Origin: Octopus vulgaris
Lineage: Eukaryota
NCBI GenBank assembly: GCA_951406725.2
Contig: OX597816.1
Location: 165,974,001 to 166,038,000 of the forward strand
DNA length: 64,000 nucleotides
Direction of reading: 5' to 3'
Part shown: one piece after another, positions 3,893 to 59,830 of the stretch
Layout: each line of letters begins with the position of its first letter
Position numbering within the stretch: position 1 is the stretch's first letter
The notes under the pieces: generated by a model
Database searches by the model: none
What the model was told of the DNA's origin: nothing
The model's input: the letters and a program-made list of their open reading frames with translations, nothing else
Translations under genes and position numbers: made by a program

Positions 3893-3981
3893 CTTCCAAC
3901 ATATGTTTCGAAAAAAGCATTGAGATTATTCCGGAGGAAGTAAAAGCGATGTAATACAATGCATTCATTTTGTCAGGGAAG
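3893..3981 (-). ncRNA. Type I hammerhead ribozyme motif (pLTR copy, G8 mutated)
   Basis: Reverse complement reads CTTCC-CTGACAA-[GCATTG...CAATGC stem II]-GAAAC-atat-GTT-GGAAG. Confidence 0.65.
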
Positions 3982-4724
3982 AAAAGAAGCAAAACACAGC
4001 AATAAGCTCTTTTAACCGAATGTGATTACCACGTACCTAAGGAGAACGCTAGCAAGTTATCTTTTTAAACAGTCGTTAATAGATTCAACGTCAAATTAGA
4101 GAAGAGAAGGTGAAAAAAGTAAGAAATTAAGAGAAAATTAAGAGTGGAAAATATTATGTGAAAGTAATGGAAATAAAGTTTAAAAGCGCAGTAATAAATA
4201 TAAATAATGGAAATGAAAGCAGTTAAAGCTCGATATATATAAATTGGTAGAAATTACTTAAAGTAGCTATAGGTATGTTTTTTCCAATGCGTGCAACGGT
4301 AAACGCATTCTTTAAACGTGTTTACAAGAGTATTTTTCGAGAAAAGGATGAAAAATTGTTCTTCAATACAGAGCGGACAAAAAGATTTACCTTTGTCACA
4401 TGGGAAAGATCTAGATAGAATTTTCCATTCCAAAAAATATTGTTTATTATGTTCATTTAGAGACCAAATTAATTTACTAAACTCAGTATTGTTGTGTTTA
4501 TTGATATGTCTAAATGTCGAATAATGGTTAGATAATCTTTTCGACGACTGAGACGAAGAACAACCTATTTAAAAAAATATATTAGAACCAGAAGTAATTT
4601 GACATTGATAAACAGAGTTTCTAGTCTTAGAATTACCGCTAAGGAAACGAATTCGATTCAAATTTCTATCAGAAACATTGATATTGCTGTTATTATTGTT
4701 GATAATAATATCATTGTTATTACT

Positions 4725-4860
4725 TTCATTAAGAAAATAATAACATTAAGAAAATGATAACGCATTAAGAAAATAATAATGCATTTATTTTCATTAAGAA
4801 AATAATAACATTATTATTTTCATTAAGAAAATAACATTAAGAAAATAATAATGCATTTAC
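4725..4860. repeat. Short tandem repeat (CATTAAGAAAATAATAA-like units) inside the PLE linker
   Basis: About 6 imperfect copies read directly. Confidence 0.8.
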
Positions 4861-5221
4861 TAACTTATGGTTATGTGAAGAAATGATTTGTGAAAGATTT
4901 TTGGTGTTTGAAAATCCTATTCTAATTCGGTGTGAATTGATAATAGAATGGTATTTGGAATTTTTGGAAAATTCTTGTCTATATAAGTTAAGGCTAATAT
5001 CTCAAAAATTGGCTTTAGTTTTATCATCATCGAAAATAATGTTTAAGTCCATGTTACCGAAAAAATTAACTAATCTATTTTTAACTCTGTAATTTTTGGT
5101 TAGAAACATTTTGAAGGTTGAGTCGCGATATAACTTACTAATGTTCTCCTTACATTATACATTTACGTGCGTGATAATCACATTTGGATAAAATGGCTTA
5201 TGGATGTATTTTGTTCCTTTT

Positions 5222-5311
5222 CTTCCCTGACGAGATGAATGCATTGTTTTACATCATTTTTATTCCCTTTGGAATAATCTCAATGCTTTTCTTCGGAACA
5301 AACGTTGGAAG
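5222..5311 (+). ncRNA. Type I hammerhead ribozyme motif (inverted pLTR copy, GAAA mutated to GGAA)
   Basis: CTTCC-CTGACGA-[stem II]-GGAAC-aaac-GTT-GGAAG; stem I is CTTCC/GGAAG. Confidence 0.65.
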
Positions 5312-5662
5312 TATAAATGGTTTGAAAAACACCTGCATTTGACTCCATTTAATTAATTCATCCATGTGATACAAAAACACTTCACTTAACCCTGGAATTT
5401 CTACCTTCATGGGTAGTCTGTAATATCTTTGGCTCGTAACTATTTATCTGTTTTTTTCCTTGCTATTCGTACACACTGAAAAAATATACATGCATACATA
5501 CATACATACATACATACATACATACATACATACATACATACATACATACATACATACATACATATATATATATATATATATATATATGTATGTGTGTGTG
5601 TGTGTGTATAGATAGATAGATATGTGTGTGTGTGTATATATATATATATATATATATATATA

Positions 5663-5922
5663 CAGGATGCGTAAGGTATATAAGGACATACCTTTTTGGG
5701 GTCATTGCTGCACTTTTTGCTAACTCTTTGCATAATCTTTGTTTGAGAAAATAATAATGACAGATCCTCAGCTTACTCAAGAAATGAAGAGGCATGCTGT
5801 TATTGTGGTTATAAAGGCTAAGCATAGCCATTAAGAAATATCTCGAGCTTTAAAAGTTGTCAGATCTTTCATCTACAAAGTTTGTAAGGAGCTAGAGACT
5901 GAAGATGGAAACATATCACCAC
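5663..5922 (+). mobile_element. Tc1/mariner (maT/DD37D-like) left end and transposase N-terminus, decayed
   Basis: Starts TA|CAGG. Translates MTDPQLTQEMKRHAVIVVIKAKHSH*EISRALKVVRSFIYKVCKELE, an HTH-like N-terminus. Confidence 0.65.
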
Positions 5923-6039
5923 TTTACACCCATTTTCTCCTCAGCAAACCAAACACAATACAGGCTTTCCACAACAATCCACCTACTACAATCATTTTTT
6001 AGACCTAAATCAGAGAAACAGAGATGTGAAATAGAACAA

Positions 6040-6205
6040 AATGTACTAGAACAACCGGAAATAATCAACTTATCAAAGAGAATCCCAAGTATTACACAAA
6101 CTAAAATTCTAACAAGAGGTTTAAAGTTTATAGCAACCCCTCGCAGATCGAACCCGAATGAAATTAAATATAACTCTATGGATTACTGCCGAAAATTACG
6201 CTGGA
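6040..6205 (+). mobile_element. Penelope-like element ORF N-terminal fragment
   Basis: IINLSKR..QTKILTRGLKFIATP..NEIK....YCRKLR matches the PLE NLS...L.+GL.F.P.P...F.R+LR motif upstream of RT. Confidence 0.7.
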
Positions 6206-56763: not shown

Positions 56764-57694
56764 ATATATATATATATATATATATAACTGCTACCACAAT
56801 TTATAATCTTTCCATTCTATATATATATATATATATATATATATATATATAGAGAAAATGAAATCATCAAATGAATTAATAAATTTGCCATATAGAAATA
56901 TGAAATAATTTATTGTAAAATTCAAGTCGACTGGGGCTTGAAGTTTTCAATAAATGATTTCATATTTTTATGTTGTAAATACATTCAATGACTTCTCTCT
57001 CGCCCTCTCTGCATATACATATGTATATATATATATATATAGCACAAACATACACACATACACATACACATACACAAACATATTCACACACGCATGCACA
57101 TACACACACACATACACACGCACACACATACGCACACGCATACACATACACACACATACGCACGCATACATACACGTTACAGGGTGAACAACACGAACTT
57201 TAATATAAAATTTTATTGTACTCTTAATATTGACTCCCCACCACCCCCAATCAACCATAAATGTCCCATTGTTACTCTTAAACTAGATTTTAAATAATTA
57301 CTGTTTTTTGTAGTATTTAATTTGAGCAATAAACTACTGACGAAATGAAAATAAAATTAGCTTTGGAAAATATTGTTTTGAACTTTTCTTGAATTCCAAA
57401 ATATATTGCTCGTAATTTCAAACAGGAAACAGTTCATTTAAACAGAAAAAGAAAACATACAAACATCTCATAGCTTCGGGGAAGAAGACAATAAAACGTT
57501 GAGTTGTCGTTCGTTCGTACATTCTAGAAAATCGAAAACAATGTTTTGATAATCATTCACTAATATAATTTTATTTTAGTAAGCCAACGAGGTAACGCCG
57601 TTAATAGGAGGGTTTAAGAAGGTAACGGAGGAGGGAGAGATAAACTAAATTAAAATAAAATAAAAACAAGATAAAAATGAAGCAAAAAGTAGAA

Positions 57695-57805
57695 CAGTAA
57701 TCCTAAGCCATATCGTGGTTCACCTACCGCGGTTCACTTAACGCAGTTTACCTATCGCGATTCTCCTGTCGCGGTTCACCTGTCGCGGTTCACCTATCGC
57801 GATTT
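57695..57805 (+). mobile_element. pogo/Tigger-like MITE end with 14-bp tandem repeats
   Basis: CAGTAATCC start followed by about 6 TTCACCTRTCGCGG units. Confidence 0.6.
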
Positions 57806-57869
57806 ATCATATATGCTCACGTAGGTTCCTCCGTAATGGTGTTTTGCATTTATAATAACATAAATATAT

Positions 57870-58222
57870 ACGTTCTGAATTCAAATTCCGCTGAGGTCGA
57901 CTTTGCCTTTCATCCTTTCGGGGTCGATAAATTAAGTACCAGTTACGCGCTGGGGTCGATGTAATCGACTTAATCCCTTTATCTGTCCTTGTTTGTCCCC
58001 TCTATGTTTAGCCCCTTGTGGGTAATAAAGAAACAAGTATGCCGTCTGCCGTTACGTTCTGAGTTCAAATTCCGCCGAGGTCGACTTTGCCTTTCATCCT
58101 TTCAGGGTCCGATAAATTAAGTACCAGTTACGCACTGGGGTCAATGTAATCGATTTAATCCATTTGTCTGTCCTTGTTTGTCCCCTCTGTGTTTGGCCCC
58201 TTGTGGGCAATAAAGAAATAAG
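57870..58222 (+). mobile_element. SINE A head-to-tail dimer (5'-truncated)
   Basis: Two units joined after AAAGAAACAA|GTAT. Confidence 0.88.
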
Positions 58223-58950
58223 AAATAAGCACGTGCTTATCTTGCTTAACGTCTAATCTTGTGTTGTTAAGGATAAATAAAAGGTTCATCGATATGAAAG
58301 TAGATATAAATATAGATGGGTAGATAAATAAGTAGACGGACTAACAAATATTTGTTTCCTTTATCTATTAAATATTTCATAGATTGAGCATGCTGATGCC
58401 TATTTTCCTTTTGTTTACCATGTGGAGGCTATCTCTTAATTATTTAATTTCCTAACAATTCCATCATTTTCTTTTCTGTGCCAACAAATACACATATCTT
58501 ACGAATTCGTATACTACAGCGTCAACAAATGATATCGAGACTACAAGTTTAGCGATAATACAAAAATAGCTACAGTACACAAAAAAAATAAGACAGAGTC
58601 GTTTTGTTTTCCTGTCATGTCAGGAAAACAAAACGAATGATAACCGCACTCAAAATATACCAGCCCCAAGGCGACACGCAAACACTGTATTTAACACGAA
58701 TATAAAGAAAAAATAAGGTCTTCTTCGACAAGAAAATTTATAAAATACCTATTGTATTTCTGGTAATGAATCAATAATGGACGGAATACTCCACAGATTT
58801 AACAGCATTTGGGGGAGAATATAAAATCCTACAAAACTGTATTCGAATTTCAGTGTGTACATCTGTTTGTGTGTATGTTTGTGCATATGTATTACGCGTG
58901 TAACTGTAAGTGTATATCTATCTAACTATCTCTCTCTCCCTCTCTCTCTC

Positions 58951-59410
58951 TCTATATATATATATATATATATATATATATATAAACGGCAGTTTGTCTG
59001 TCTGTGTGTCTGTGTGTCTGTCACGTTGCACCCTCACCCTGACCACGGCTTTCAACCGATTCCGATGAAACTTGAGACACACATAGCCCAATGTCATAAT
59101 TCAAAACTAACGCAGCGAAAATTTTGAAAAGTTCCCCCAGTTCTGAAAAAAATCGATCAATTCGACATGGGGTCGATAATCTAAGCTTTTTATATGCAAC
59201 ACATTTTCTGTCTAGGGGACACAACTCGACCTTTTTATCGCCCAAAGGGACAGCTCGGAATATCGTATACACAGAAGTATTCGAGTGAAGAGAAGACATT
59301 GCAACCTACACATGCGCCTTCGTTCCCTAGAGGGAAAGGACTAGATTGGGATTAGTCGTTGCCTACTAGGGGCTCTTACATACCCGAGCAACGCTGGGCT
59401 ATGCTGCTAG
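58951..59410 (+). mobile_element. Non-autonomous Helitron
   Basis: TC(TA)n AAACGGCAG start; 3' hairpin CCCGAGCAACGCTGGG and CTAG|T. Confidence 0.82.
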
Positions 59411-59502
59411 TATATATATATATATATATATATATATATATATATATATATATATATATATATATATATATATATATATATATATATATATATATATATA
59501 TA

Positions 59503-59830
59503 AAAAAGCAACAAGAATATCTTCGGTAATTTGGTACGATCGTTTCACGCTAGATCATTTTATTAAACATTTCAAGTATTACAACAGTTTTAAAATGTTG
59601 TTGGAAAACCTCTATAAATGACTGACGATTGCTCAACATTTTAAAACTGTGGTAATACTTGCAATGTTTAATAAAATGATGTAGCGTGAAACGATCGTAC
59701 CAAATTACCGAAGATATTCTTGTTGCTTATTTTGATTATAATAATCCCATGGATTTATATGGATAACACCGTACAAAATTCTGCTGCTTCTGACTTAAGT
59801 ACCATATTCATTTGAATCTAAATTTTGGTG
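59503..59830. mobile_element. Fold-back pLTR-like element in (TA)n (arms 59506-59600 / 59634-59728)
   Basis: Inverted arms read directly. Long (TA)n on both sides. Confidence 0.8.
59618..59703 (+). ncRNA. Type I hammerhead motif, long stem II
   Basis: CTGACGA(59622)-t-TGCT.CAACATTTTA...TAAAATGATG.AGCG-t-GAAAC-gatc-GTA(59697-59699). Stem I is imperfect. Confidence 0.65.

Follow-up and report, generated by a model that had tools for sequence, protein, structure and literature searches.

The window analysed here is a 64,000-nt stretch of the Octopus vulgaris genome (assembly GCA_951406725.2, contig OX597816.1, positions 165,974,001 to 166,038,000, forward strand). It had a GC content of 36%, was rich in microsatellites and in repeats resembling short interspersed elements (SINE-like repeats), and no long real open reading frame (ORF) was seen in it. 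Type I hammerhead ribozyme motifs, with CUGANGA and GAAA core strands, a UH cleavage site, and stems I and II, were scattered through the window and belonged to at least nine lineages. Most were truncated single copies, and their stem III was short or absent and palindromic, as in the dimer-type hammerheads of Penelope-like elements (PLEs). Very probably, these motifs lie in decayed PLE terminal repeats, and their palindromic stem III is the known pairing device of double hammerheads.

The scan of the window used a descriptor based on the core and on stems I and II; it rewarded a C15.2-G16.2 pair but not a palindrome. Thirteen matches scored 24 or more, compared to 0.125 per window in eight block shuffles; the next match scored 22.2. 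A stricter earlier descriptor gave only 11 raw matches, and no hammerhead model was present among the best 150 of the 214 Rfam matches listed (E ≤ 1). Stem III was a perfect palindrome in nine of the 13 blind-scan matches. Four of these were loop-less ACGT and five were 8-mers, with AGCT at 9985, 6966, and 24840, GATC at 15227, and ATAT at 3909. The remaining four matches were two copies with ACTCGGAGT and two non-palindromic sisters (14366 and 5295) of palindromic copies.

A table compiled by hand held 19 motifs, each with both core halves. Perfect palindromes made up 13 of the 19 (six of them loop-less ACGT), and the rest were two stems of odd length, two single-copy decays, and two longer hairpins. 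Every core base was present in ten motifs, and an intact core coincided with a perfect palindrome in six. A loop-less stem is always palindromic if 15.2-16.2 is a Watson–Crick pair, so ACGT brings no extra information. When sites were counted over the window with no structure filter, the tetraloop was palindromic at 9 of 18 GAA-AC-NNNN-GT sites vs. 53 of 418 AC-NNNN-GT sites without GAA (Fisher p = 2e-4), and at 7 of 15 vs. 44 of 409 after sister copies were collapsed (p = 7e-4). The first-pass annotation had described stem III of nearly every hammerhead as a palindrome; the enrichment is real, but the wording was too strong.

Two related families, H1 and H2, consisted of minimal hammerheads with loop-less ACGT. 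H1 had A at core position 6 and was represented at 3532..3570 (+; G12 changed to A) and 15559..15597 (+; core intact), both found by the blind scan and by hand. The H2 copies at 6649..6688 (+) and 35436..35475 (−) were likewise found both ways, the copy at 12704..12743 (+), with two core changes, was in the hand table, and the copy at 46006..46045 (+) had a mutated G12. All four H2 copies carried U at core position 6 (6655, 12710, 35469 on the minus strand, and 46012). Three of these cores read CUGUNGA, and in one, C3 was also changed.

The stem III sequence ACAGCTGT was present in four hammerheads. Those at 6857..6983 (+; 96-nt stem II), 9968..10019 (−; family F3, the top-scoring copy), and 24769..24857 (+; 58-nt stem II) had intact cores and were recovered both by the blind scan and by hand. 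The fourth, an F3 copy with a decayed core at 14250..14301 (−), formed the left arm of an inverted pair; its right arm, at 14332..14383 (+), had an intact core and the broken palindrome ACAACTGT. The sequence ACGATCGT occurred at 15195..15244 (+; core intact; blind scan and hand table) and at 59616..59705 (+; 59-nt stem II, decayed stem I; hand table). An inverted arm of the latter (59535-59546, −) repeated the palindrome and lacked the CUGANGA half. Family F5 comprised a hammerhead at 3892..3982 (−) with ACATATGT, a 60-nt stem II, and a mutated G8, and an inverted sister at 5221..5312 (+) with the non-palindromic ACAAACGT, which is likely decayed. The inverted pair of family F6 (35043..35213; arms −35105..35043 and +35150..35213) had ACTCGGAGT, a near-palindrome of odd length, at 35061 and 35195 and had been overlooked by the first-pass annotation. 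The F7 pair occupied both strands at 36923..37019, with an 8-bp stem I in the plus arm; the blind scan did not recover either arm.

Stem II measured 58–96 nt at 6863-6966, 24775-24840, 59622-59688, and 3976-3909 (−), far above the length typical of minimal PLE hammerheads; descriptors of fixed size would miss such motifs. An extra base preceded G12 in the looped hammerheads at 9985 (−), 14267 (−), 14366, 6966, 15227, and 35195, and most of these also had one following A9, so that A faces A or G at the foot of stem II.

The stem III strings quoted in the first-pass annotation were all found where it had placed them, those at 3899, 9975, 14257, and 56440 lying on the minus strand after GAA. Two of these sites were rejected as complete hammerheads. 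The site at 21890..21901 (+; GAAACAGCTGTA) had no recognisable CUGANGA half at the expected place and is an orphan or decayed, and the site at 56439..56448 (−; GAAACCGGTT) had no recognisable core upstream and is possibly a chance occurrence. The F7 site at 36930, listed there as a palindrome, was also discarded as such: stem III at 36948 and 36994 was a 16-nt hairpin with 3–4 bp, an imperfect palindrome.

The F5 hammerhead was accompanied by a protein remnant. A broken minus-strand ORF, in two parts at 4257-4680 and 4858-4992, was 58% identical to its closest database relative. The part at 4257..4680 probably represents the broken C-terminal GIY-YIG-type endonuclease of a Neptune-like Penelope element, and 4858..4992, in another frame of the same ORF, aligned with residues 269-313 of the relative P0056 (E 6e-5), in the region before a zinc-finger linker. 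Known protein motifs gave mostly noise in the window, yet they pointed to the remnant at 4257-4680. P0056 seems by eye to contain motifs like those of reverse transcriptases, but Pfam gave no match for it. The closest relative retrieved 231 relatives, and 148 of the 150 listed were used (two repetitive ones were dropped). In tblastn, the only part of the window that they matched was the minus strand of 4167-4992, which lies 5′ of the hammerhead of F5. Pfam support for GIY-YIG was sub-threshold and came from relatives only (2 of 17 scanned); the match in P0092 (E 2.6e-4) was just under the curated cut-off. A C-terminal GIY-YIG endonuclease 5′ of a hammerhead, as in the Neptune type, was seen for F5 only. 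The order on the minus strand was remnant, hammerhead (3982-3892), and (ATAG)n tract, and the inverted copy at 5163-5350, an inverted 5′ repeat, was 85% identical.

The F5 family was then followed in contigs of two related organisms (B and C), aligned to 3855-4100 at 80% likeness (229 and 270, respectively); the resulting depth figures are not copy numbers, and contigs with another loop may have been clipped. Summed depth was highest across stem III and the 3′ arm of stem I. Of the depth units, 666 of 966 and 93 of 162 carried a restored G8, 936 of 966 and 153 of 162 had G10.1, and no alternative letter reached 5% at 3886-3912 among the best 40 of 53 rows listed. These data indicate that the F5 majority has an intact core with ACATATGT and that the copy at 5295 is likely a product of decay. 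Six contigs, which may form a subfamily sharing the palindrome, kept ACATATGT but had another 3′ arm in stem I (agreement 0.6).

Five head-to-head pairs were present in the window (3854-5350, 14214-14419, 35021-35235, 36899-37043, and 59502-59732), in keeping with inverted 5′-truncated copies, and the flanks were microsatellites of the (TA)n, (TG)n, or (ATAG)n type. Since the hammerheads of such pairs lie on opposite strands, they could not be partners within one transcript. Head-to-tail retrozyme repeats of 170–400 nt were also looked for, and no hammerhead was found in any of 150 of the 152 tandem arrays listed.

Pairing energies were predicted by the nearest-neighbour method. The 2-bp monomer hairpin was unfavourable (+2.4 kcal/mol), whereas the stem III homoduplex reached −11.1 kcal/mol for AGCU, −10.0 for GAUC, and −7.0 for AUAU. 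These predicted values would fit the published double-hammerhead model (PMC4209133 and reviews), in which copies joined by a palindromic stem III cleave as dimers and to which the first-pass annotation had already referred. When an active element is transcribed in tandem, the GAAA-stem III strand of one copy would pair with the stem III-UH strand of another, and the stem I 5′ arm of the first with the 3′ arm of the second; because the cleaved strand continues into the stem I 3′ arm, topology implies that stem I must swap too. Each core would then cut its partner after H17, releasing a unit-length RNA. Such pairing would place stem III under selection to stay self-complementary within each lineage, while its letters drift or are inherited. 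Letters that differ between lineages would prevent cross-pairing as a side effect, and the simplest reading of the predicted orthogonality is that it arises incidentally through descent and is not a code private to each family. Most genomic copies in the window are likely dead.

Several observations weigh against this interpretation. Six of the 19 motifs were not perfect palindromes, and F7, with its longer hairpin, might fold without a partner. Like motifs on one strand did not lie close together in tandem, the nearest such pair being 4.3 kb apart, so dimer cleavage is not visible in the window itself. The protein link concerns F5 only; motif and layout are the basis for assigning the other families. 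In 123 of the 319 stop-free window segments, Pfam detected neither reverse transcriptase nor GIY-YIG, its matches there being a Mos1 helix-turn-helix and otherwise low-complexity noise, and the remnant at 4257-4680 itself matched neither domain; no PLE reverse transcriptase was recognised in the window. The F5 contig test came from organisms B and C, where different loops could be clipped, and 13 weaker rows were not listed.

Beyond descent, stem III and stem I together might sort co-resident families into trans compatibility groups, with different palindromes insulating and shared ones cross-activating; this idea is tentative, and we consider it unlikely. For the pair 9985 and 15227 (AGCU and GAUC), swapped stems I and III summed to a predicted −1.6 kcal/mol vs. 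−27.6 and −29.3 for the homo-pairs; such sums are taken from single decayed copies and leave the core out of account. Stem I cross-pairing alone was predicted at 0.0 kcal/mol, so that with stem III two locks would exclude this pair. The F3 copy at 9985 with 24840, in turn, gave −22.2 kcal/mol, equal to the 24840 homo-pair (−22.2), and H1 with H2 gave −10.7 vs. −7.4 for either homo-pair. Possibly, U6 is a family-wide core variant of H2; a natural A6C hammerhead has been described as slow in magnesium, and a literature search in which subscription papers lay largely outside found no report of A6U. Given the predicted compatibility, H2 might be cut in trans, and the grouping would make it a crippled rider cut by H1 in hetero-dimers. 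If such groups existed, retroelement families would interact via RNA pairing rules, and palindromes that exclude one another might be put to use in ribozyme switches with two components.

The first-pass annotation went further and proposed a family-specific pairing code, in which selection would have driven the loop letters apart, leaving activation possible only between like copies, whether in cis or in trans. The palindromes are indeed predicted to be nearly orthogonal, with hetero stem III among AGCU, GAUC, and AUAU at +0.9 to −1.6 kcal/mol (AGCU with GAUC, +0.4) vs. −7.0 to −11.1 for homo-pairs. Three 8-mers, one 9-mer, and ACGT coexist in the single window, and the literature search found no paper testing hetero-pairs or a pairing code, with the same limit on subscription papers. 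A difference by family is only partly borne out, as the letters are reused. AGCT was found at four loci and GATC at two, all without detectable downstream similarity, and ACGT in two related families. Seven such loci use 3 of 16 palindromes (P about 0.004 if letters are drawn uniformly, and 0.018 when only the six loci with a core are counted; post hoc, with composition ignored). Private codes predict distinct palindromes, and this reuse does not support a code. Stem I swapping would make the palindrome lock redundant, and the two hetero-pairs 9985 with 24840 and H1 with H2 are predicted to be no worse than homo-pairs. Cis pairing in a tandem transcript would probably beat trans partners without any code. 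Among the rows listed for F5, the one family tested, none showed a complementary (symmetric) loop variant reaching 5%. AGCT also occurred in unrelated metagenome hammerheads (three of five structured matches, two contigs). The metagenome pattern scan gave at least 120 loci and at least 121 matches; of the 121, the stem filter passed five (three palindromic) vs. 11 palindromic among the 116 that failed, and these cases are too scarce and too closely related to carry much weight. Taken together, a code of this kind is quite improbable.

Metagenome hammerheads with a ACAGCTGT stem III were located in L075 at 151-183 (−) and 601-633 (+), in L078, and in L027. The two in L075 were inverted and diverging, with 420 nt between them. 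The AGCT motif was not found in viral contigs (0 matches).

Cleavage as a monomer, in which a tetraloop caps a stem III of 2 bp, tertiary contacts or proteins help, and the palindrome is an ancestral, optional trait, is in our view highly unlikely. Efficient self-cleavage has been reported for most invertebrate retrozyme hammerheads (PMC7229834), and the F6 and F7 hairpins have 3–4 bp. On the other hand, the loop-less ACGU of H1 and H2 cannot form a hairpin, as the first-pass annotation had recognised, and all five tetraloop lineages of the blind scan were palindromic (majority or sole copy) against a background of ~11%, which calls for continued selection for intermolecular pairing. That the palindromes are look-alikes picked from AT-rich repeats is hardly credible: two cited sites lacked a core, two non-palindromic sister copies had been omitted, and GAAACGTT occurs in an unrelated SINE-like head too, but the blind scan against shuffles, the unbiased site count, and the F5 family majority largely refute such a selection artefact.

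Two abundant SINE-like families surrounded these motifs (1225-1456, 39900-40150, 50800-53418, and 57869-58222; 9641-9850, 44608-45023, and 48561-48977). One had 183–185-nt tandem units, and its head contained GAAACGTT, a false hammerhead cue. This sequence was located at 1238, 8247, 40125, 43460, and 52226, and these sites were rejected, as the blind scan gave no match there. Long inverted repeats without a hammerhead match were present at 16620-17393, 36219-36803, 46596-46987, 10151-10398, and 56729-56820, the last being a perfect 92-nt palindrome. A mariner-type remnant at 43192-43449 (+) contained the Mos1-transposase helix-turn-helix (PF17906, E 1.4e-6). The segments at 40270-41120 (+) and 42560-43024 (+), which had no Pfam match, presumably resemble the C-termini of non-LTR (long terminal repeat) retrotransposon proteins.

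Elements of the Neptune PLE clade (Craig et al., 2021; PMC8557442) share with F5 a C-terminal GIY-YIG-type domain and a hammerhead near the 3′ end, and with the window an inverted 5′-truncated copy and microsatellite flanks; a zinc-finger linker is found in the relatives of F5. The window differs in retaining no more than a broken 3′ remnant of one family's ORF, and no reverse transcriptase was recognised by which to place it in a tree. In the double hammerheads of newt and avocado sunblotch viroid (Forster, 1988) and the repeat-type motifs of Perreault 2011 (PMC3088659, with the same arrangement in Fig. S8C), a palindromic stem III and loop III likewise allow a dimeric fold. Those systems are tandem satellites or viroids, whereas the motifs in the window are dispersed element ends. 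The work of Lunse, Weinberg, and Breaker (2016/17), as summarised in PMC6765202 and PMC6466107, is similar in PLE association and in the short palindromic stem III, the dimer cleavage being theirs.

The closest counterparts are the hammerheads of metazoan PLE pseudo-LTRs (Cervera and de la Pena, 2014; PMC4209133). According to that paper, a palindromic 15.2-16.2 plus loop 3 and dimer activity are general PLE features, with no monomer cleavage and low dimer cleavage. The consensus in its Fig. S3 reads 'GAAAN Palind NUH', with CGCG, GGCC, and CGCG in Aedes families and AGCU and GUAC loops elsewhere. These hammerheads resemble those in the window in CUGANGA with an extra base, GAAA, palindromic 15.2-16.2/loop 3, the short stem I, the U-rich 5′ flank, many families per genome, and mostly single truncated copies with some opposite-strand pairs. 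Several motifs in the window differ from them by a 58–96-nt stem II or an extra base before G12, as do the H2 copies by U6 (four of four). The examined part of the Fig. S3 list includes no cephalopod, and the literature search, largely outside subscription papers, found nothing specific on cephalopod hammerheads. In PMC4209133, a palindromic stem III that serves dimer cleavage and varies between the families of one genome is already published, and the window reveals no new principle. What it adds is a natural set of hammerheads of the dimer type, all from a single animal genome and with several different palindromes, that could be used directly to compare homo- with hetero-pairs.

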